64,000 nt of DNA from Candidatus Portnoybacteria bacterium. Its GTDB lineage: Bacteria > Patescibacteriota > Minisyncoccia > Portnoybacterales > GWB1-42-6. Made by a program: the position numbers and the translations under genes. The DNA lies in NCBI GenBank assembly GCA_028688325.1, contig JAQTYI010000001.1, positions 302,620 through 366,619 of the forward strand, in the 5' to 3' direction. This document shows, in pieces, positions 31,511-50,610 of the stretch; the stretch's first letter is position 1, and each line of letters starts with the position of its first letter. The notes under the pieces were generated by a model, which did not search any database, was not told the origin of the DNA, and saw only the letters and a list, made by a program, of their open reading frames with translations.

Positions 31511-32296
31511 ATGAGTGATTTTGAAGAAAAAATTCAAGAGTTATTAAAATTAAAAGGTTTGGATTTTGTTCAGGGTCTTTTGAAGATAGAAGAAGATCGC
31601 TTTAATAAGGAATTTTTAAAGGGTTCTGTATACGAAGAAATAAATGCTGATTTTGGGCTTTTCCCTCCCTTAAAAATTTATCCAGTTTATTTTTTGGGCA
31701 ACATAGCAAGACCGGAGAATAAAAGAGTTTTTATAGGAATAAATCCTGGTTATGATAGAAGCAATTCTTTGGAACAGAAATTTTTAGAAGAAAGAGGCTG
31801 TTTTGATGGCTATTGTAATATTTTTGGAGATTTTTTAAGAAAAAAACACAAAGGGCTTTCCTCTAAATATTTTTCTAATATAGCAGGTTTTTTAAAGCGT
31901 TTTTACGAATTAGACGAAATAAATAATTGGACTTGGTTTCAGGATAATATTATAAATTTGGATTTCATTCCTTATCATTCAAAAAATGCCGCCGGTATAA
32001 GAATAAATAATATCGAGAAGTTCAGAAAAGTGTATTTTCAGATATTATTAAAATTTTTAGAACATATTAATCCGCGTGACTATATTTTTGTAAATGGATT
32101 CCCAACTTTTGAAGGATATTTCCAAAATGATATTTTTATTAAAGCTATACAATTTAAAAAGGTGGATAATTTTTGGATAGGGAATATTGGCAGATTTAAA
32201 TTTATAGGATTGCCGTTTTTAACTCAAGTATCTGGTGGCAAGGATAATTTAGTAAATAATATTCGTAGATATTTAGCAGATGAAGCAACTTCTTAA
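31511..32296 (+). CDS. Hypothetical protein with low-GC coding sequence
   Basis: 261-aa ORF, markedly more AT-rich than its neighbours. No motif recognised. Confidence 0.45.
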   Translation: MSDFEEKIQELLKLKGLDFVQGLLKIEEDRFNKEFLKGSVYEEINADFGLFPPLKIYPVYFLGNIARPENKRVFIGINPGYDRSNSLEQKFLEERGCFDGYCNIFGDFLRKKHKGLSSKYFSNIAGFLKRFYELDEINNWTWFQDNIINLDFIPYHSKNAAGIRINNIEKFRKVYFQILLKFLEHINPRDYIFVNGFPTFEGYFQNDIFIKAIQFKKVDNFWIGNIGRFKFIGLPFLTQVSGGKDNLVNNIRRYLADEATS

Positions 32297-33779
32297 AAAA
32301 CTGATTCCCGACAGGATGCTGAGCATCTATCATTTCAAATTGGCGCTTTTGGGGGCGCTGGTTTTTGGTTTCCCGAGTAGGAAATTGAGGGTTATTGGCG
32401 TGACGGGAACAAAAGGGAAGTCGACCGTGGTGATGTTGGCGGGGAAGATATTGCAGGAGAATATAACCTCACCCCAACCCTCTCCTTCAAAAGGAGAGGG
32501 GGAAGTTTTTAACCCCCCAACCCCCCTTTGCGTAAGGGGGGATGAAAACGGGGATTTTTGTGAAAGCGGGCAAGCCGAATTTGCCCCCCTTGTAAAGGGG
32601 GGCGCAGGGGGGTTAAAAAATGTCGGATGGATCTCTTCGCTCACGATAAACGACGGGAAAAATGAAACGATGAACCCCTATCATATGACGATGCCAGGCA
32701 GGTTTTTTATTCAAAAGACGCTGGCGCAGATGATAAAAAACGGCTGCGAATACGCGCTGGTTGAAGTGACCAGCGAAGGAATAAAACAGCACCGGCATCG
32801 CTTCATCAACTGGGCGGGCGCGGCGTTCACTAACCTCGCGGCTGAGCATTTGGAAGCGCACGGCGGGTTTGAAAATTACAGAAAAGCCAAAGAGAAACTA
32901 TTTGCCGCCGCGGCAAAAAATGAAGATAGTTTCGGGGTGTATAACCTGGATGATGAAAATGTCGGTGAGTTTTTGAAGTATGGGATCGCAAGAAAAATTG
33001 GATACGGAATTCTTAACCCCCCAACCCCCCTTTGCGTAAGGGGGGATGAAAACGGGGATTTTTGTGAAAGCGGGCAAGCCGAATTTATCGTAAAGGGGGG
33101 CGAAGAGGGGTTAAAGAATTTACGAATTTCCAATATTCAATTATCTGGCAGTGGCTCGGAATTTGTCATCAACGGCGTGGAATTTAAAACCAAATTCTTG
33201 GGTGAGTTCAATATTTATAACTGCGCCGCCGCCGCGGCTATCGGGCAGGTCTGCGGCGTGCCGCTAAAAGTTGCGGCGCAGGCGCTCGCAAAGATAAAAT
33301 CTATTCCGGGTCGATTGGAAATAATTGATGAGGGTCAGGATTTTACGGTCGTGGTTGATCTGGCGCACACGCCGGATTCTTTTGAACAAGTTTTCAGATT
33401 GTTCGGAGAGTTGAAGCAAAATAAAATCATCTCGGTTTTCGGCGCGGCCGGCGGCGGGCGCGATAAATGGAAGCGGCCGGAACTTGGCAGAATCGCCTCG
33501 GCTTATTCGGACCAGGTTTTTATTACCAATGAAGACCCGTATGAGGAGGACCCTCTTAAAATAGCGGATGAAATATTGGCCGGGTGCGATAAGAGTAAAA
33601 CCGACATAATCTTGGACCGCCGGCAGGCCATTGCCCGCGCCTTGTCTTTGGCGCGCAAGGGTGATATAGTTTTAATCCTCGGTAAAGGAACGGAACAAAC
33701 GATGGTTGCCAGCGATAAAAAATATGATTGGGATGACAGAAGGGTCGTTCGCGAGGAATTGAAAAAAATAGTTCATTAA
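32280..33779 (+). CDS. murE: Mur ligase family protein (MurE-like UDP-MurNAc-tripeptide synthetase) with two in-frame copies of a roughly 100-bp GC-rich repeat
   Basis: P-loop VIGVTGTKGKSTV. DLAHTPDS. C-terminal SVFGAAGGGRDKWKRPELGRIA...ITNEDPYEEDP. Both inserts translate to the identical stretch NPPTPLCVRGDENGDFCESGQAEF. Confidence 0.7.
   Translation: MKQLLKKLIPDRMLSIYHFKLALLGALVFGFPSRKLRVIGVTGTKGKSTVVMLAGKILQENITSPQPSPSKGEGEVFNPPTPLCVRGDENGDFCESGQAEFAPLVKGGAGGLKNVGWISSLTINDGKNETMNPYHMTMPGRFFIQKTLAQMIKNGCEYALVEVTSEGIKQHRHRFINWAGAAFTNLAAEHLEAHGGFENYRKAKEKLFAAAAKNEDSFGVYNLDDENVGEFLKYGIARKIGYGILNPPTPLCVRGDENGDFCESGQAEFIVKGGEEGLKNLRISNIQLSGSGSEFVINGVEFKTKFLGEFNIYNCAAAAAIGQVCGVPLKVAAQALAKIKSIPGRLEIIDEGQDFTVVVDLAHTPDSFEQVFRLFGELKQNKIISVFGAAGGGRDKWKRPELGRIASAYSDQVFITNEDPYEEDPLKIADEILAGCDKSKTDIILDRRQAIARALSLARKGDIVLILGKGTEQTMVASDKKYDWDDRRVVREELKKIVH
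32470..32630. repeat. Family-2b GC-rich repeat inside murE (copy 1)
   Basis: CCCCCCAACCCCCCTTTGCGTAAGGGGGGATGAAAACGGGGATTTTTGTGAAAGCGGGCAAGCCGAATTT... identical over about 70 nt to the copy at 33015-33115. Confidence 0.8.
33015..33115. repeat. Family-2b repeat inside murE (copy 2)
   Basis: Same sequence as copy 1. Confidence 0.8.
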
Positions 33780-33790
33780 AATAAAACCCC

Positions 33791-33941
33791 GCAGAGGGCG
33801 GAGAAACCAGGCGATGGCAGCCAAGATGGGCTCATAACCCATCTTTGACGAGGCGATGTTGGCGTTAATTCATCCGGCGCCAATTACTTTTGTATGTTAA
33901 TTCGTTTCTCGTTGCGGGTTCGATTCCCGTCCGCCCTCTGC
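33791..33941 (+). ncRNA. tRNA-like structured RNA. Canonical T-arm plus 7-bp acceptor (extendable to a 12-bp terminal helix), a CAU 'anticodon-like' hairpin, and a roughly 70-nt extra segment. Possible intron-containing or insertion-bearing tRNA(Met/Ile2-CAU), or a tRNA-like attachment site
   Basis: 5' GCAGAGGGCGGA pairs perfectly with 3' TCCGCCCTCTGC. T-arm GCGGG-TTCGATT-CCCGT. Hairpin GATGGG-CTCATAA-CCCATC. No canonical D-arm or spacing could be fitted. Confidence 0.35.
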
Positions 33942-34044
33942 TCCTAAATAACGCCTCGAGCGATTCTGCCGGGGCTTTTTATTTCCGATCTTCGCTTGGG
34001 TTTTAATTTAAATGCTTCAGTATAATAGTATACTGAAGCATTTT

Positions 34045-34083
34045 TGGGATCAATAAAAAAGCCCCGATGAGGTTCCATCGGGG
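34045..34083 (-). terminator. Intrinsic terminator downstream of the reverse transcriptase gene
   Basis: CCCCGATG-AGGTTC-CATCGGGG followed on the minus strand by a T-run. Confidence 0.6.
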
Positions 34084-34085
34084 TG

Positions 34086-35039
34086 TTAATTTTGCAGTTG
34101 TTTGTTTATTTGTTTTTTGATTTTTGGCGGGCAATCAATGTCTTGTCTTTTTTTCAAATAGCCGAGCAGAGGGGTTAAGAGCTGGTTAGATATCTTTTTC
34201 TCAATGCCCATGGCGTAGGCGATAATGCCAAAGACCTGTTTTTCGGAAACGGAATTATCCATTTTTGCCCGGCCGATCATTCCGCGAAACCGCCTTATTT
34301 TTTTAGGCGGAATTTTAGGTTTTTTATCAACGATATTTATTCCTGTAATGCGCAAGGCGCCTTTTTTTATTGAACCATAGCGGGTTTTTTCGGGATTGAT
34401 CTTGAATCCAGCTTCTTCCAGCTTCTTGGCGATAATATTCTCAAAGCTTTTTGGTATTTTGACGCTGGAACTGAAAGTCAAGTCATCCACATAACGCGAA
34501 TAGCGCAATCGATGTTCAGCCACCTTCTGGTTGCTAAAAGATAAGTCAATATTCAGCAGATTTGTGGCTCCCAGAAGAGCATTAAATATGGCCAATGAGG
34601 TTGGCGCTCCTTGCGGAAGTTGGTTGCGGAAGGTGGTTAATTTGGTTAGAATCTTGGCCAGTTGCGGCGAAGCGTTCATTATTCTGAAAAACCAGTAAAC
34701 CATTTTATCGTCAACGGTCGGATAAGCGTTCTTTATGTCGATAGTAATAAGGTATTTGCTTTGTTTGTGGACAAGGGCGTTAGTCCGAGCGGATTTTTTG
34801 GCTATTCCGCCATGCGCTTGAGACGGGATGCAAAAAGGCAATTCTTTTAACAAGATTCGCTGAATTTTTTTCAGCGGTTCTTCGGGTGCCGCAATCTCGC
34901 GCTTACTGCCGTCTGATTTTTTCTTGTACCAGACACGATAATGGCTCTTAATGTTTTGTGACAACATTAGTAATTCCGTAGTGTCGAGATCGAACATTTT
35001 AGAAAAATTCTCTAAAGAAATTTTATTTTTCTTTTTCAT
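34086..35039 (-). CDS. Reverse transcriptase, retron-type (317 aa)
   Basis: Reverse transcriptase motifs: A (ITIDIKNAYPTVD), B' (LPQGAPTSLAIFNALL), C (YSRYVDDLTFSS, the YxDD box), D (GFKINPEKT) and an ITG/VTG-like segment (LRITGINIV). Strong Shine-Dalgarno sequence AAGGAGG. Compact retron size. Confidence 0.75.
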   Translation of the reverse strand: MKKKNKISLENFSKMFDLDTTELLMLSQNIKSHYRVWYKKKSDGSKREIAAPEEPLKKIQRILLKELPFCIPSQAHGGIAKKSARTNALVHKQSKYLITIDIKNAYPTVDDKMVYWFFRIMNASPQLAKILTKLTTFRNQLPQGAPTSLAIFNALLGATNLLNIDLSFSNQKVAEHRLRYSRYVDDLTFSSSVKIPKSFENIIAKKLEEAGFKINPEKTRYGSIKKGALRITGINIVDKKPKIPPKKIRRFRGMIGRAKMDNSVSEKQVFGIIAYAMGIEKKISNQLLTPLLGYLKKRQDIDCPPKIKKQINKQLQN

Positions 35040-35045
35040 TTGTTC

Positions 35046-35294
35046 CTCCTTGATAAATGAAAAAACGCGGACGGGCTTCCATGACCCATACTGGGCATGT
35101 GAAGAGAAGCATGGTGAGGTGTCTTTTGGCCGCGATAGCGCAGGGGCTCGTCGCCGGAGCGATAGCGGGCAAAAGACATCTGGGCACGCGTATTGTTACA
35201 TACGCAGAGCTTAATGGTAAGTCAAACTTCTTTCCGCCAGATGCTGGCAGGCCGATGGCTCGCAGAGCCACCTAAGTCAAGCCCGTCCGCGTTT
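35046..35294 (-). ncRNA. Candidate retron msr/msd non-coding RNA locus bounded by perfect 16-bp inverted repeats (a1/a2)
   Basis: AAACGCGGACGGGCTT at 35063-35078 is the exact reverse complement of 35279-35294. The intervening roughly 200 nt is GC-rich with several hairpins. It ends 24 nt before the reverse transcriptase ATG. The ORFs the track places here (35023..35271, 35057..35275) look non-coding. Confidence 0.55.
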
Positions 35295-35398
35295 ATTGTT
35301 AAGGTGCTAAACAAAGATAATTGATAGTAGCTATTTTTATTAAGGAAGTCAAGAAATAAAAAACCCCGCGCTTGATGTTGATGCGCGGGGTCGAGTTT

Positions 35399-35782
35399 CT
35401 AATGCGTGTTGATTATTTCGCCGGCCATTTGCGTGGCTTCGGCGAGAAGCTTTTTGGGAATATCGTCTATCCCGAAGCCATCGCTGTTGGGCGAGGTATA
35501 GATGACTTGCGGGCCCTTGCCGTAATCGGCGAAGGTGATAACAATATCTAGCACGGAAAGGGTGGCGGATTTTTCTCGACAGGACTCCATGATAAGCCGA
35601 ATCTTTTTGTTATGGAGCCGCAGAGAAAGAATATCGCCGCCTTTTTTGTCAAATTCCCTGAACTGGCGAATGGCCTCCGGGCTTATATGGCCGGCTCCTT
35701 CGCCATCGCAATTAGGGCACCGGCCGACTCGTTGGCTGGGATACCGATAACCGCACTTGAGGCAGAACCTATCTTTGCTCAT
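35399..35782 (-). CDS. Zinc-ribbon protein with an acidic C-terminal domain, possibly TOPRIM- or NYN-like. Candidate retron-associated effector
   Basis: CLKC...CPNC zinc ribbon at the N-terminus. C-terminal IRLIMESCRE...LDIVITFADYGKG...SPNSDGFGIDDI with conserved acidic residues. Immediately upstream of the retron locus on the same strand. Confidence 0.4.
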   Translation of the reverse strand: MSKDRFCLKCGYRYPSQRVGRCPNCDGEGAGHISPEAIRQFREFDKKGGDILSLRLHNKKIRLIMESCREKSATLSVLDIVITFADYGKGPQVIYTSPNSDGFGIDDIPKKLLAEATQMAGEIINTH

Positions 35783-35909
35783 AAGACCCTCCTTGTGGGT
35801 GGTATGGGTAGCTGATAAGAACTATATCTGATAGTTATATTATATCAAAACGCTATGAATATGTCAATAGTAGCGCTAAAATACCGGAAAGTGTATAATA
35901 TATCGGTAT

Positions 35910-36221
35910 GCCAGGTAGTAGAAATTCGACAGCGATTATGTTCTATTATGTTTATATTTTAGAGAGTTTAAAGAATAAGGAATTGTATGTCGGTTACACG
36001 GGTGATTTAAACAAGAGAATAAAAGAACATAATCGCGGATTGGTTTTTTCTACAAAACCATATCTGCCTTGGCTAATTATATTTTACGAGGCCTATAGGA
36101 GCGAAAAAGACGCCAGAAGGAGAGAGGCGTATTTAAAGACCAGCCAAGGCAGCAGATTGTTAAAAAGAATGCTTAAAGAATATTTTTATAATAAAGAATA
36201 AGTCGAATTTTCACTACCTGG
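35910..36221. mobile_element. Autonomous-looking member of the MITE family: terminal inverted repeats enclosing a GIY-YIG nuclease gene
   Basis: Left repeat GCCAGGTAGTAGAAATTCGACAGCG. Right repeat GTCGAATTTTCACTACCTGG. The same repeats as the non-coding MITE copies. Confidence 0.75.
35938..36201 (+). CDS. Small GIY-YIG nuclease family protein (87 aa) carried inside the repeat-flanked element
   Basis: MFYYVYILESLKNKELYVGYTGDLNKRIKEHNRG...R...AYLKT...LLKRML. GIY...YVG and catalytic R/E/N spacing. Confidence 0.75.
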   Translation: MFYYVYILESLKNKELYVGYTGDLNKRIKEHNRGLVFSTKPYLPWLIIFYEAYRSEKDARRREAYLKTSQGSRLLKRMLKEYFYNKE

Positions 36222-36348
36222 AATGAAAAACTACGCTTCAGCCAGGGCGGGAAGGGGCAAAACGACCTATCGCACGCCGAGCGTATTTAAATATCAGAAG
36301 TGCCGGAAGGTGGAGAAAATTAAAATGGTTAATAAAAATATTAAACAA

Positions 36349-36486
36349 TTGTCATCCCGGGCCTGACCCGGGATCCAGGCCCTGAAGCCCAACCGTCGCT
36401 AAAGCTTTGGCGAGGCAAGCAAGTTCAGGGCGACAAAAAACCTGGATTCTCCCCGCACTTGATGCGGGGCGGGAATGACAAAATGA
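36349..36486. repeat. Family-1 repeat ending inside the annotated 5' end of the next gene
   Basis: TTGTCATCCCGGGCCTGACCCGGGATCCAGG ... CCCCGCACTTGATGCGGGGCGGGAATGACAAAATGACAA. Confidence 0.8.
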
Positions 36487-37871
36487 CAATCATGAAACTA
36501 CATTTTCACGGCGGGGCGGAGGCGGTAACAGGCGTCAATTATCTGCTGGAAACCGGGAAATCAAAGATTTTGGTTGATTGCGGTTTGTTCCAGGGGCCGA
36601 AGGAGTTGGAAGCCAGGAACTCAAAGCCATTCGAGTACGATGCCAAAACCATCGACGCGGTGATAATCACGCACTCGCATCTTGATCATGTTGGCCGCTT
36701 GCCCCAGCTCATCGACGCGGGATTTCGCGGCAAGATATTTGCCACGCCTCCGGCGGTTAATTTCACGCGCCTTATTTTGGAAGACAGTGTGCGGGTTTTG
36801 GCGGAAAAAGCCCAGCATGCGGGAGTCGTGCCGATGTTTTCCCAAGAAGAAGTCAACCAGGTGATGAGCCAGTTTGTGCCGGTTGATTATTATAAAAAAA
36901 CCAAAGCCGCGGAAGATATTGAATTTACATATCATAACGCGGGTCATATTCTGGGCTCGGCCATCGTTGAGCTTGACTCCGAAGGAAAGAAAATAGTTTT
37001 TTCCGGTGACTTGGGTCATCCGCCCGCGCCATTGTTGCGCGCGCCGGATTATTTAATCTGCGCCGATTATGTGCTGGTGGAGTCAACTTATGGCGACCGA
37101 AACCACGAATCGCCGGAAGAAGGCGAAGAAAGAATAGAGAATGTCATCGAGGACACCATTTCCAAGGGCGGCGTCTTGATGATTCCCAGCTTTGCCATGG
37201 AACGCACCCAACAGCTGCTTTATCATATAAATGACCTGATCGAACACAAGCGCATTCCGAGGATACCTGTTTATATTGATAGCCCCTTGGCTACGCATAT
37301 CACTGAAGTTTATAAAAAATATCCGCAATACTATAACAAAGAGGCGGCTTCCGAGATTGACTCGGGCGATGATGTTTTTAATTTTCCAGGACTGCGTTTC
37401 ACTCTTTCTTCCAAGGAATCAAAAGAAATAAATGATTCGCCGTCTCCCAAAGTTATCATCGCGGGGTCGGGCATGAGCAACGGCGGCCGCATCGTGCATC
37501 ATGAAGTGCGGTATCTGAGCGACCCGAAAAACACCTTACTGATGGTGGGCTATCAGGCCGAAGGTACGCTGGGCCGGCGCATCGCCGACGGGCAGAAAAG
37601 GGTTGTTGTTCTGGATCAGGAAGTGGAGGTGCGGGCAAAAGTGGAAAAAATTTCCGGCTACTCGGCGCACGCCGACCAGTTTTATCTGATGGACTGGATA
37701 AAGAGTTTCAAAAAAATCGCTTGCGGCGATGGCAGCGGCAAGCATAAATTGACGAAAGTTTTTGTGGTGCAAGGCGAAGCCAAACCGGCCGCGGCTCTGG
37801 CCAGTTTGATCCGCGATGAGCTTGGCATTACTACGGAGGTGCCAAAGCTCGGTGAAACGGTTGAGCTTTGA
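36483..37871 (+). CDS. Beta-CASP metallo-beta-lactamase-fold ribonuclease (RNase J / CPSF-like)
   Basis: HxHxDH motif (ITHSHLDHVGRLPQL). Beta-CASP motifs. C-terminal RMBL-like region. The start was trimmed to the ATG after the repeat. Confidence 0.75.
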   Translation: MTIMKLHFHGGAEAVTGVNYLLETGKSKILVDCGLFQGPKELEARNSKPFEYDAKTIDAVIITHSHLDHVGRLPQLIDAGFRGKIFATPPAVNFTRLILEDSVRVLAEKAQHAGVVPMFSQEEVNQVMSQFVPVDYYKKTKAAEDIEFTYHNAGHILGSAIVELDSEGKKIVFSGDLGHPPAPLLRAPDYLICADYVLVESTYGDRNHESPEEGEERIENVIEDTISKGGVLMIPSFAMERTQQLLYHINDLIEHKRIPRIPVYIDSPLATHITEVYKKYPQYYNKEAASEIDSGDDVFNFPGLRFTLSSKESKEINDSPSPKVIIAGSGMSNGGRIVHHEVRYLSDPKNTLLMVGYQAEGTLGRRIADGQKRVVVLDQEVEVRAKVEKISGYSAHADQFYLMDWIKSFKKIACGDGSGKHKLTKVFVVQGEAKPAAALASLIRDELGITTEVPKLGETVEL

Positions 37872-37911: not shown

Positions 37912-38042
37912 GCCAGGCAGTGAAAATTCGGCAGTTTATACGGATTATCATTGGTTGGTAAAGATAGATAAAACTATAGAGTTTGGCATCATTAATTAAG
38001 TTCGTTGAATTTAATTAATATAGCCGAATTTCTACTGCCCGG
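37912..38042. mobile_element. MITE copy e (inverted orientation)
   Basis: GCCAGGCAGTGAAAATTCGGCAG ... GCCGAATTTCTACTGCCCGG, then T and the ATG of the downstream gene. Confidence 0.8.
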
Positions 38043-38043
38043 T

Positions 38044-38649
38044 ATGGAAGAAATAGCCAAAAGCCATTTGAAATACAAGATCTGCGTTTCGGGCGCGGCG
38101 CGCACGGATTGTTGCTCCGAAGATGCAATGGATAAGACCAAGGAATTGGGGCGCGAGATAGTGCGCCAGAACGGCATTGTGGTCACCGGCGCCACCACGG
38201 GGGCTCCCTACTGGGCGGCCATTGGCGCCAAAGAAGAGGGCGGTATTTCCATCGGATTCTCGCCCGCGTCTTCCGAGGCCGCGCATGTAAAAACATACCA
38301 CCTGCCCATAGATTATTTTGATATGATTGTTTACACGGGCTTTGAATATTCCGGCCGCAATTTGATATTGACCCGGGCGGCCGATGCGGTGGTCTTTGTC
38401 TGCGGGCGGCTGGGCACGCTGAATGAATTCACCATCGCCTTTGAAGATAAAAAGCCCATTGGCGTTCTGACGGGCACCGGCGGCATGGCCGACGAGATAA
38501 AAGAAATAGTGGCCAAAGGAAACCGCGGTCCGGGAAAAATCGTTTATAACGACAATCCGAAAGTTTTGGTGGAAAAAGTTATAGAAATGATAAAAAAAGA
38601 AAAGGACATCGAGGTTGAGTTTGGAACGGGCAAAGGAGGGGGAGAATAA
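38044..38649 (+). CDS. TIGR00725/LOG-like Rossmann-fold protein
   Basis: KICVSGAAR...GIVVTGATTG...GGISIGF...VVFVCGRLGTLNEF. The start codon abuts the MITE repeat. The extension the track places upstream is a translation of that repeat. Confidence 0.6.
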   Translation: MEEIAKSHLKYKICVSGAARTDCCSEDAMDKTKELGREIVRQNGIVVTGATTGAPYWAAIGAKEEGGISIGFSPASSEAAHVKTYHLPIDYFDMIVYTGFEYSGRNLILTRAADAVVFVCGRLGTLNEFTIAFEDKKPIGVLTGTGGMADEIKEIVAKGNRGPGKIVYNDNPKVLVEKVIEMIKKEKDIEVEFGTGKGGGE

Positions 38650-40463: not shown

Positions 40464-41842
40464 CCTGGTTGATAAAAATTGAAAAAGCGCTGTTTTATTT
40501 TTTCACTTTCGCTTTTTTTTGGCAGTTGCGCCTGGTTTGGCAACCATTCGGCGGCGCGTTCAATGAGTGGGCTTCCGTTTATCTTTACGCCACAGATATC
40601 ATCATCGTGGCGATTTTATTTTTATGGGCTGTCAGGATTTTAAAAGATGGCATCAAAATAAAATGTGGCCGGCCGGAAATATTCTTGAGCGTATTTTTAA
40701 TGATTGTCGGCGCTTCGGTTGTTTTTGCCCAGAATAAATTATTGGCCGGTTACGGGTTTTTAAAATTGCTGGAAATGTCCGCGTTGTTTCTTTATGTCAA
40801 GCATAATTTTTCCGTGCTTTACGGCTTGAAAAGTTTCTGGCGTTGGTTCATTGCCGGAGCGGCATTGAATAGCGCGGTGGCGATAAACCAGTTTTTTGCC
40901 CAAAAAAGCTTGGGCTTGAAAATTTTTGCTGAAAGCCCGTTGGCGTCAAATATCGACGGCGTGGCGAAAATTATCGTCAACGGGGCCAAAATAATGCGCG
41001 CCTATGGCTTGGTGCCGCATCCCAATATTTTGGCGGCGATCTTAATGGCGGCAATTTTTGGAATGGCGTGGCTGTGGCTGAAACAATACAATGAGTGTCA
41101 TCATGGGTCGAGCTCGGGATCCAGGTCTTGGATTCCCGTTTTCACGGGAATGACAAAGAGAGCTGATTGTTTTTTGTCCGCATCGATTTTCATTTTTTTG
41201 TTATCCGCCCTTTTTTTCACCTTTTCCCGCGGCGTAACTATTGTCGGATTTGCGGCGCTTGCGGCCTGGTTGATTTTTGTCTGGCTGAAAAATAAAGAAT
41301 ACAGGAAGCCGATTTTGGGTATTTTTTTGCTATTTGCTATTTGCTATTCGCTATTGGCTATTATCTGCCGGCCTTATGTTTCTGCGCGCTACGATGCCGG
41401 CGCGCTATCTGGAAGCCAGGCCGTCAATTTAAGATACTTTTACAACCAGGAAGCGCTGACGATGATAGAAAAAAATCCCTTCCTGGGAGTTGGGCAGGGA
41501 AATTTTGTCTGGGCGCTGACTCGTTCGGATATTGCCAATTTTGAGCCGTGGATGGCTCAGCCCGTGCACAATATTTATTTGCTTATCGCTTCAGAAACCG
41601 GCCCGTTGGGCTTGCTTGCATTTTTGCTGTTTTTATTCTTTACTATAAGGGCCGCGTGGAAATATCGACATAATTTGTCGGAAAGTCATTTGCTGTTTAT
41701 TGTCGGCGCATTGCTGCTCATTGGACTTTTCGACCATTTTTTGTGGGATTTGCAGCAAGGGCAAATTTTGTTCTGGCTGGTGCTGGGAATTTTAGCGAGC
41801 TTTAGTTTAAATGATCAAGTAGAGTCGAGCCCTCGTAGTTGA
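40460..41842 (+). CDS. O-antigen ligase (WaaL/Wzy_C) family membrane protein with an in-frame family-1 repeat insertion. The 3' end overlaps the tRNA-Arg gene
   Basis: Multi-transmembrane protein with HNIYLLIASETGPLGLLAFLLF, a Wzy_C signature. Insert translated as ECHHGSSSGSRSWIPVFTGMTKRAD. Confidence 0.7.
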   Translation: MTWLIKIEKALFYFFTFAFFWQLRLVWQPFGGAFNEWASVYLYATDIIIVAILFLWAVRILKDGIKIKCGRPEIFLSVFLMIVGASVVFAQNKLLAGYGFLKLLEMSALFLYVKHNFSVLYGLKSFWRWFIAGAALNSAVAINQFFAQKSLGLKIFAESPLASNIDGVAKIIVNGAKIMRAYGLVPHPNILAAILMAAIFGMAWLWLKQYNECHHGSSSGSRSWIPVFTGMTKRADCFLSASIFIFLLSALFFTFSRGVTIVGFAALAAWLIFVWLKNKEYRKPILGIFLLFAICYSLLAIICRPYVSARYDAGALSGSQAVNLRYFYNQEALTMIEKNPFLGVGQGNFVWALTRSDIANFEPWMAQPVHNIYLLIASETGPLGLLAFLLFLFFTIRAAWKYRHNLSESHLLFIVGALLLIGLFDHFLWDLQQGQILFWLVLGILASFSLNDQVESSPRS

Positions 41843-41903
41843 ATGGATCCAATATCTCCCTCCGAAGGAGAAGCTGCAGGTTCGATTCCTGCCGAGGGCA
41901 CCA
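41829..41903 (+). tRNA. tRNA-Arg (anticodon CCG), CCA encoded
   Basis: Manual fold: acceptor GCCCTCG/CGAGGGC. D-arm GTTG-AATGGATC-CAAT. Anticodon arm TCTCC-CTCCGAA-GGAGA. T-arm GCAGG-TTCGATT-CCTGC. Discriminator A, then CCA. Confidence 0.85.
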
Positions 41904-50065: not shown

Positions 50066-50222
50066 ATTTGACGAAGTTTTACGGGCCGTGGCCCGTGGCG
50101 GGCTTTACGGGCTGCGCCGCGTGATCATGAGCGAAATTAATGATGTTGCCCCGTAAAATAATTTGCTGACGCAAATTACCACGGGGCGCGTTAAATCCTT
50201 CGCTTCGCTCATGATTTTACGC

Positions 50223-50610
50223 GGTGGAGACGGGGAGATTGAACTCCCGTCCAAAAAATATTCTTAAAATACATCTACAAACTTAGCCTGATTTATTTGA
50301 TGGGATCTGAAGCTGTGAATCAGGCAAAAACGTTTCAGACCCTATCCGGTAATTTTTCAATCGCATCCCCCGGAAAGGATACTATCTATTCCGAAAAGAT
50401 TACACCCGGGCTCTGCCTATCGGAAGTCGTCAGGCCGGATGGGTTTTGGGCTATTTTATTAGGCCAGAACCGGAGCATAAGAAGGCGCGAACGCATTCTT
50501 GATGCCTGTCATAAAGTTGACATTTGTTTGTTTGCTGAAAGTTTATCGAGATTTTAGCACACTCGGTTTGCGTATTTTTAAGGACATTTGATGTCGAAAC
50601 TTGCGCCCCC
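50223..50610 (-). ncRNA. ssrA: tmRNA (ssrA), standard one-piece form
   Basis: Minus-strand 5' end GGGGGCGCAAGTTTCGACA, a tRNA-like 5' domain. 3' end GGACGGGAGTTCAATCTCCCCGTCTCCACC, a T-arm plus acceptor that pairs with the 5' end. Internal tag reading frame ...NAFAPSYAPVLA followed by TAATAA. Adjacent to smpB. Confidence 0.65.

Follow-up and report, generated by a model that had tools for sequence, protein, structure and literature searches.

A tRNA-like RNA with an initiator-type CAU arm and a giant variable arm downstream of murE in Candidatus Portnoybacteria and related Patescibacteria

Directly downstream of the murE gene of Candidatus Portnoybacteria bacterium (assembly GCA_028688325.1) lies a stretch of 151 nucleotides (nt) that resembles a tRNA gene and is not called as one. 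We analysed it within 64,000 nt of contig JAQTYI010000001.1 (positions 302,620 to 366,619 of the forward strand), referred to as the window. The element is followed by a terminator-like hairpin, by a retron reverse transcriptase (RT) gene on the opposite strand, and further downstream by genes for a zinc-ribbon protein, a beta-CASP nuclease and a SLOG protein (Table 1). An original prediction, made from the sequence alone, had termed it an aberrant tRNA-like gene next to a retron island. This description proved apt, as conservation extends to the T loop, the GG of the D-like loop and the CAU loop of 7 nt, and none of the detectors recognises a tRNA here; the adjoining island is indeed a retron, though one with its own msr-msd RNA.

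Table 1. The tRNA-like RNA, its parts and the surrounding features, in window positions.
Feature	Position	Strand	Remarks
Protein of 261 amino acids	31511-32296	+	in the slot between femAB and murE; no family match
murE	32280-33779	+	TIGR01085, 345.6 bits (cutoff 257.3)
tRNA-like RNA, whole	33791-33941	+	151 nt, from the P1 5′ strand to the P1 3′ strand
P1 (terminal, acceptor-like helix), 5′ strand	33791-33802	+	GCAGAGGGCGGA; purine-rich
D-like hairpin	33810-33822	+	GGC-GAUGGCA-GCC; 7 nt after P1
Anticodon-like hairpin	33823-33845	+	AAGAUGGG-CUCAUAA-CCCAUCUU; loop 33831-33837, stem of 8 base pairs
Giant variable arm	33847-33913	+	about 67 nt; basal stem GACGAG/CUCGUU; inner hairpin 33859-33883; pyrimidine-rich 3′ strand
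T arm	33914-33930	+	stem CGGG/CCCG (4 base pairs) plus G.U; loop UUCGAUU
P1, 3′ strand	33930-33941	+	TCCGCCCTCTGC; pyrimidine-rich
Intrinsic-terminator-like hairpin and U run	33953-33984	+	read from sequence
Perfect palindrome	34010-34043		AAATGCTTCAGTATAATAGTATACTGAAGCATTT; 34 nt; between the terminators of the RNA and the RT gene
Terminator of the RT gene	34061-34083		
Retron RT	34086-35039	-	best PADLOC profiles RT_VI and RT_II-A
Retron msr-msd RNA	about 35066-35292	-	upstream of the RT gene, same strand
Zinc-ribbon protein, 127 amino acids	35399-35782	-	CxxC...CxxC; weak DUF7129 match
Beta-CASP nuclease	36459-37871	+	resembles archaeal aCPSF1 and type VII Cas14, below both cutoffs
SLOG (LDcluster4) protein	38005-38649	+	after the beta-CASP gene
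tRNA-Arg(CCG)	41829-41903	+	
tmRNA	50222-50610	-	standard one-piece; 112.8 bits

The minimum-energy fold of the element is a five-helix cloverleaf of -67 kcal/mol, a value that none of 200 dinucleotide shuffles matched (-47.2 +/- 4.0 kcal/mol; z = -4.94). The terminal helix P1, thought to be extendable to 12 base pairs (bp), consists of 12 contiguous perfect bp, and no CCA is encoded 3′ of P1 after any P1 register. The predicted T arm (GCGGG-TTCGATT-CCCGT) was likewise recovered, with 4 Watson-Crick pairs and a terminal G.U, the U of which doubles as the partner in the twelfth pair of P1. About 112 nt separate the T arm from the 5′ strand of the acceptor-like helix, close to the 113 nt noted originally in place of the usual 42 nt or so. 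Other parts had to be amended. The hairpin with the loop CTCATAA exists, yet its stem comprises 8 bp rather than 6; canonical spacing of a D-arm is indeed absent (7 nt instead of 2), but a D-like hairpin can be drawn. The direct repeats that were thought to bracket positions 33843-33913 do not do so: the copies of GTTAATTC are located at 33864-33871 and 33896-33903, within the long arm, and 11% of shuffles of the element contain some 8-mer repeat. Apart from the cloverleaf, GAGAAAC (33801-33807, the end of P1 and the linker) is perfectly complementary to GUUUCUC (33904-33910, the 3′ strand of the variable arm), a pairing that could form a candidate pseudoknot or an alternative fold. Inspected by eye, its counterparts in relatives are only partial; the linkers there are purine-rich and the arm strands pyrimidine-rich.

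The element belongs to a previously uncatalogued RNA family that is not in Rfam 15, and literature searches returned no published description of this RNA. Loci around MurE orthologues (numbered with the prefix L) were fetched, two covariance models were built (R1 and R2, scoring 162 and 117.5 bits on the window copy) and the loci were searched with them. The census was anchored on the MurE protein because scans of sequence collections mostly matched tandem tRNA arrays. The pattern GGCTCATAMCC-N{60,90}-GGTTCGANTCC retrieved mostly such arrays from metagenome and viral contigs, with one true member, L084, among the matches listed; a stricter two-gap pattern, applied to viral contigs, returned nothing but phage tRNA clusters, and a home-made helix descriptor was dropped as far too permissive. 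The family comprises 13 distinct members in Portnoybacteria-like Patescibacteria, nearly all of them just downstream of murE. Type A is represented by the window copy (equivalent to L299), L002, L300, L306/L307a and L321, and type B by L004, L084, L307b and L320; L001 (85 nt) and L003 are short forms without the giant arm, and L302-304 and L005 are divergent. The MurE proteins of RNA-bearing lineages share about 60-68% identity, and the RNA is patchily distributed among close relatives.

Several candidates were set aside: L018, L015 and L035 are ordinary tRNAs, L009 is without a T loop, and L071 is possibly the 3′ end of a tmRNA, judging from its ...CGCTCCA terminus. The weak model matches in L218 and L225 were also excluded on account of their different two-domain architecture. 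These viral contigs carry an element of about 155 nt (L225 11105-11259, + strand; L218 10933-11087, - strand) with a GGCUCAUAACC hairpin and a T arm UCGG-UUCGACU-CCGA, which scores 24.5-24.9 bits with R2 and receives no ARAGORN or Rfam call; it may be a different, phage-borne tRNA-like RNA.

Covariation was measured on the model-guided alignment A7 of the 13 distinct members. Standard pairs occupy 92% of the A7 cells, compared with 69% in column shuffles and 36-52% with slid partners, and changes on both sides were found in 28 of 36 pairs, figures that are somewhat inflated since A7 was fitted to the model; none of 500 shuffles reached any of these measures. By helix, both-side changes affect 9/9 pairs of P1, 3/3 of the D helix, 3/6 of the anticodon stem, 4/6 and 7/7 of the variable-arm helices and 2/5 of the T stem. 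The 39 G.U cells assign the RNA to the + strand. Single-sequence folds, which are independent of A7, yield the same architecture. The tRNA-shaped fold is thus conserved.

In place of the canonical tRNA geometry (7-bp acceptor, 5-bp T stem, a linker of 2 nt before a D stem of 3-4 bp, and a variable region of 4-21 nt), the family has a sealed, extended acceptor-like helix, a short T stem and a long linker. P1 measures 10-14 bp in 13/13 members (one internal mismatch being counted in L300 and L005) with a purine-rich 5′ strand across the family; the T stem counts 4 Watson-Crick pairs, after which comes a mismatch, a G.U or one additional base, and 6-9 nt separate P1 from the D hairpin in most members. 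The elbow features of a canonical tRNA are retained: the T loop conforms to UUCRANY, reading UUC(G/A)A-N-U in 12 of the 13 members, with the G53:C61-equivalent pair in 12/12, and one lineage is without a T loop. In the D-like loop the first G is found in all members and the second in all but one. The variable arm, 60-85 nt in length, is conserved at its base and free to vary distally. Where it is absent, in L001 and L003, the RNA does not revert to a tRNA: L001 keeps a long P1, a 4-bp T stem and a 6-nt linker, and is not called.

The initiator-type CAU arm is under strong constraint. C-A-U and the two loop-proximal G-C pairs of the anticodon stem, which is 6-8 bp long across the family, are present in 13/13 members, C32, U33 and A37 each in 12/13, and A38 in 11/13. 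The canonical 7-nt loop with U33 and a purine at position 37 (CUCAUAA in the window) is kept, with A37, in 12/13; the deviants are the 8-nt loop CUCAUCGA of L306/L307 and C33 in L302. Moreover, the arm GGG-CUCAUAA-CCC is identical in the window, L002, L300 and L321, and matches that of bacterial initiator tRNA, as in E. coli. The loop CUCAUAA is also the complement of UUAUGAG, which lies at the start of the adjacent gene for the 127-amino-acid protein; as this is not kept in L321, we take it to be due to chance.

Established detectors overlook the element. ARAGORN gave no call at 33791-33941 and reported in the window only the tRNA-Arg at 41829, and at the gathering thresholds of Rfam 15 only this tRNA-Arg and the tmRNA were found. 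Ordinary tRNA-type genes of this genome are therefore detected normally. A permissive Rfam scan (E <= 10) of positions 33700-34100 yielded nothing for the element except a weak match of the tmRNA model to the T arm (33915-33929; 15 nt, 9.7 bits); the tRNA (RF00005) and tRNA-Sec models did not match the window copy at this threshold. The element does not have the features of a tmRNA either (a tRNA-like domain lacking an anticodon arm, together with a tag reading frame and pseudoknots). In the relatives, neither Rfam nor ARAGORN called a tRNA in any family member, and ordinary tRNAs in the same loci were called.

The RNA is placed at the 3′ end of murE or archease messages and nearly always has its own terminator. 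It starts 11 nt after the murE stop codon in the window and 3-4 nt after it in L002 and L004; where it directly follows murE the distance is 3-48 nt, and in L321 the final codons of murE already form part of the P1 5′ strand. As there is no room for a promoter of its own, the RNA most likely constitutes the 3′ end of the murE message. What looked like a promoter motif upstream, TAGTWCTTTAAAAT, belongs to the conserved coding sequence for the MurE C-terminus. Of 11 members inspected, 10 have a GC hairpin and a U run 3′ of the RNA; in the remaining one, L302, rtcB starts 13 nt later. The flanking synteny reads ruvA-femAB-(variable slot)-murE-RNA-(variable slot)-beta-CASP nuclease-SLOG-permease, and the beta-CASP and SLOG pair is kept downstream in nearly all relatives, whether or not the RNA is present. 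The slot between femAB and murE is occupied in relatives by PIN_12 (L306), RhuM/Fic (L300) or DUF6941 (L321) genes and looks like a second hotspot for conflict-type genes.

Within this arrangement, two kinds of neighbours recur. In L302-304 the order is murE-archease-RNA-rtcB, the RNA being located 37 nt past archease and directly before an archaeal-type rtcB, and in L003 the RNA directly follows archease. The linkage of murE to archease and archaeal-type rtcB was seen in L302 (4001-7467), L007 (6001-9066) and L323 (5001-8224), and in L323 MurE and archease are fused in one protein of 568 amino acids (P0114); a cell-wall ligase is thereby tied to the cofactor of an RNA ligase. In most loci the other neighbour, femAB, precedes murE and the RNA. 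L306/L307 contain two tandem femAB-murE-RNA modules, one for each RNA type, and the second copy of L307 lies behind a different open reading frame (ORF), not directly behind murE. L305, L308 and L322 carry femAB-murE without the RNA, and in L302, which has the RNA, femAB is absent from the 4 kb of upstream sequence that was fetched with murE.

The retron next to the element is complete by itself: an msr-msd RNA of its own accompanies the RT, which therefore does not use the tRNA-like RNA as template. The msr-msd RNA is bounded by 14-nt inverted repeats (a1/a2; ACGCGGACGGGCTT and AAGCCCGTCCGCGT), is kept in L306 and is not matched by Rfam. The RT gene is convergent with the tRNA-like RNA in three lineages (window/L299, L306/L307 and L321), and most family members have no RT nearby. 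Between the window and L306 the RT proteins are 66% and the MurE proteins 65% identical; as these values are alike, the retron-RNA neighbourhood is old. Homologues of the zinc-ribbon protein (47-52% identical) are encoded directly downstream of the RNA in L300 (6036-6440, - strand) and L002 (5199-5633, - strand), both of which are retron-free. By gene order, the zinc-ribbon ORF is a recurrent convergent neighbour of the RNA and not a retron gene, and because its homologues adjoin the RNA in these retron-free loci, the retron appears to have been inserted between two syntenic neighbours. A second small family (117 amino acids in L002, 119 in L321) behaves similarly. Finally, window positions 32622-37779, which extend from the 3′ portion of murE across the RNA, the retron and a GIY-YIG ORF into the beta-CASP gene, are 98% identical to L299 3843-9021, as against 78-83% in the flanks (ruvA, femAB and the 5′ part of murE). 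This difference suggests a recent recombination or transfer tract.

We tentatively favour the reading, possible though short of probable, that the RNA is a non-decoding mimic of tRNA(fMet/Met) that acts as a decoy, a sensor or sentinel, or an adaptor. That it would be non-decoding is the most likely case because P1 is paired past any known acceptor length, no CCA is encoded and the D region is non-canonical. The RNA would form the terminal part of the murE transcript, or in one related clade belong to a murE-archease-RNA-rtcB operon, with the intrinsic terminator ending the transcript. In the fold, P1 stacks on the 4-bp T stem, and the D-like GG could dock on the T loop, thereby building a tRNA elbow. 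Together with the acceptor-like stack, this elbow may recruit tRNA-processing or tRNA-binding enzymes that cut the RNA from the mRNA and stabilise it. The CAU arm would then be the working end or functional surface: as a look-alike of tRNA(fMet/Met) that cannot be charged, the RNA might act as decoy or sentinel towards factors binding or cleaving the anticodon arm of this tRNA; alternatively, it might be an adaptor for the RtcB-Archease repair ligase by which it is flanked in relatives. The neighbours related to repair or conflict, namely archease/rtcB, the retron (three lineages) and Fic/RhuM or PIN_12, are consistent with such a role. There is also precedent. YrlA, encoded beside rtcB, mimics a tRNA yet has no free CCA end (Chen et al. 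2014, PMC4201824), and irregular allo-tRNAs near toxin-antitoxin genes have no function in translation (Mukai et al. 2017, PMC5389517).

Several observations weigh against this reading. Archease and rtcB flank the RNA in just two of about twelve lineages, neither gene was found in the 64-kb window, and L007 and L323 have murE-archease-rtcB without the RNA. Moreover, the region is a variable hotspot, so the neighbours may be coincidental. As with the YrlA of M. smegmatis, a substrate of RNase P (Chen et al. 2014, PMC4201824), RNase P could cut the RNA described here inside P1 and leave an acceptor of 7-9 bp for CCA addition; non-chargeability is for this reason not proven.

The latter point leads to the alternative of an irregular but functional tRNA of the tRNA-Sec or allo-tRNA type, which we regard as unlikely, though worth serious attention. 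RNase P and 3′ trimming would shorten P1 to an acceptor of 8 or 9 bp above the 4-bp T stem (8/4 or 9/4 form), CCA would be added, and MetRS (by way of CAU) or SerRS (by way of the arm) would charge it for the ribosome. The armless L001 aligns end to end with the Rfam tRNA-Sec model (RF01852) in the 9/4 register, with 29.1 bits and E = 3e-4; the 4-bp T stem, the long anticodon stem and the long variable arm are traits of allo-tRNAs and tRNA-Sec, and 12/13 members retain the 7-nt loop with U33, CAU and A37. In addition, some 8/4 tRNAs have an extra loop between the acceptor and D stems (PMC5389517), and aptamer-tagged allo-tRNA variants with an added hairpin are reported to be translationally active. 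However, the scores of L001 and of L302 (15.1 bits) stay below the gathering threshold of 47 bits, and the window copy is unmatched. The 12-13-bp branch of tRNA-Sec and allo-tRNAs (8/4, 9/3, 8/5 or 9/4) would here need cleavage inside P1, which is paired and covaries beyond 9 bp in 13/13 members. The D-like hairpin, with a stem of 3-5 bp and a loop of 6-8 nt, differs from their long D stem (5-6 bp) with a tetraloop, and the UCA anticodon of tRNA-Sec is replaced by CAU in all 13. In length, the variable arm exceeds that of known class II tRNAs about threefold. The lineages with an 8-nt loop, with C33 or without a T loop and the patchy distribution likewise argue against a tRNA in use. Somewhat less likely again is that the RNA is a dedicated partner of archaeal-type RtcB-Archease. 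As a sentinel copy of the initiator-tRNA anticodon arm, it would report or buffer anticodon-nuclease attack through its cleavage and re-ligation, or RtcB would mature the RNA by end-joining or circularisation across the sealed terminal helix. Such an RNA would be a Ro-independent counterpart of the YrlA-RtcB pair, and window-type lineages would have lost or relocated the ligase genes and kept the RNA. A purely cis-acting element in the 3′ untranslated region or between cistrons, which would serve the processing or punctuation of the murE/archease/rtcB message or block exonucleases without any function in trans, is improbable. The RNA does abut or overlap the murE stop with no room for a promoter, sits tightly between archease and rtcB in L302 and is mostly followed by a terminator; yet this hairpin by itself would protect the 3′ end, punctuation needs neither an invariant CAU with its closing G-C pairs nor a large covarying arm, and the second copy of L307 is not directly linked to murE. 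Distinctly improbable is a non-ribosomal aminoacyl carrier that, after processing and charging, donates an amino acid to the FemAB-family transferase of the cluster for peptidoglycan side chains, for which the non-proteinogenic tRNA-Gly of Staphylococcus provides the model. The frequent femAB upstream and the tandem modules of L306/L307 would fit, and the 4-bp T stem with a mismatched 49:65-equivalent pair would presumably weaken EF-Tu binding. On the other side stand the sealed P1 with neither a free 3′ end nor an encoded CCA, and the separate occurrence of femAB-murE and the RNA noted above; to our knowledge, methionine is not a cross-bridge residue.

The remaining alternatives concern the origin of the long arm and of the locus. 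The original prediction had considered a tRNA(Met/Ile2) carrying an unusual intron or insertion. In such a precursor an endonuclease would excise the arm and RtcB-Archease would rejoin the exons, a very improbable course in our judgement. The archaeal-type rtcB and archease flanking the RNA in L302-304 and the freely varying distal arm are compatible with it, but the helices at the arm base show covariation as integral elements of the RNA and the window is devoid of both genes. Inspection of the folds revealed no 3-4-3 bulge-helix-bulge at the arm base, which has a bulge of 2 nt on one strand and 1 nt on the other in the window and a 1x4 internal loop in L002, and no self-cleaving ribozyme was matched in Rfam at E <= 10. 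Nor did the relatives provide an uninterrupted ortholog, since the armless L001 and L003 are themselves non-canonical and uncalled. The same prediction had also envisaged a tRNA-like attachment site or 3′ fragment. That the RNA is a decayed tRNA gene or a remnant of retron-island integration is barely tenable and close to refuted. Variable genes (the retron, small ORFs or archease/rtcB) do lie directly downstream, but all arms are conserved and not the T arm and acceptor alone, and all helices show purifying selection and compensatory changes at a MurE identity of only about 60-68%. Moreover, the RNA is found at the same place in retron-free relatives and no direct repeat of its 3′ end exists beyond the island (33700-36600), and a Pfam scan of six neighbouring ORFs yielded no integrase. 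The notion that the RNA is the msr-msd template or primer of the neighbouring RT is refuted for practical purposes. A superficial likeness to retron RNAs comes from the terminal inverted repeat of 12 bp and the combination of small hairpins with a single long one, and the RT is adjacent in three lineages; the element is, however, on the opposite strand and convergent with the RT gene, which has its own conserved msr-msd in the window and in L306, and most members are without a nearby RT.

Few tRNA mimics are known, and each of them (tmRNA, YrlA, viral tRNA-like ends and allo-tRNAs) has a distinct biology. The RNA described here adds a conserved, covarying family confined to a lineage of the candidate phyla radiation whose RNA biology is almost unexplored, and in it the anticodon arm of the initiator is copied while the acceptor end is sealed. 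The family sits in cell-wall (femAB-murE) and RNA-repair (archease-rtcB) operons, repeatedly beside defence elements. If the RNA is a decoy or sentinel mimicking tRNA(fMet/Met), it would represent a new cellular means to guard the initiator tRNA; if it can be charged, the limits of a functional tRNA would be stretched to a variable arm of 60-85 nt. For annotation, the family is missed by current tRNA and Rfam pipelines.

Among known systems, tRNA-Sec and the allo-tRNAs (8/4, 9/3 and 9/4; PMC5389517) resemble the element in their long acceptor on a 4-bp T stem, their long anticodon stem and their long arm. Some of them have an extra acceptor-D loop at the site of the linker in the element, and some allo-tRNA-type copies are located near conflict genes and are translationally inactive (PMC5389517). 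They differ in that P1 is here sealed at 10-14 bp, the D loop of 6-8 nt contains GG, the arm measures 60-85 nt and CAU is presented on an initiator-type stem, and in that the RNA occurs in Patescibacteria and not in Clostridia, Proteobacteria or Acidobacteria. YrlA shares with the element the conserved D and T arms, the absence of a free CCA end and the frequent position beside rtcB in RNA-repair operons (PMC4201824). YrlA is, however, permuted: the Ro-binding stem, located at the anticodon side, is built from its two ends, T precedes D and the acceptor stem is capped by a loop (PMC4201824), whereas in the element the order is D, anticodon, variable arm and T, the acceptor side is where the ends meet, and there is a true CAU loop. 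A Pfam scan of ten window ORFs and the gene calls of the fetched relative loci revealed no Ro60/TROVE-type annotation. With the bacterial initiator tRNA (tRNA-fMet) the family shares the anticodon arm, identical in four members, and the invariant CAU with its closing G-C pairs; in contrast to tRNA-fMet, it has no 1:72 mismatch, 7/5 branch or CCA, its D region is non-canonical, it carries a giant arm and tRNA models miss it. The cell-wall tRNA-Gly of Staphylococcus and tRNA-Other of Bacillus cereus (the latter cited in PMC5389517) are likewise extra tRNA-like genes outside normal translation, and the former is linked to Fem-type peptidoglycan transferases, as the RNA described here is accompanied by femAB. 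Both are ordinary-sized and chargeable, whereas the element is twice as long and its acceptor end is sealed.

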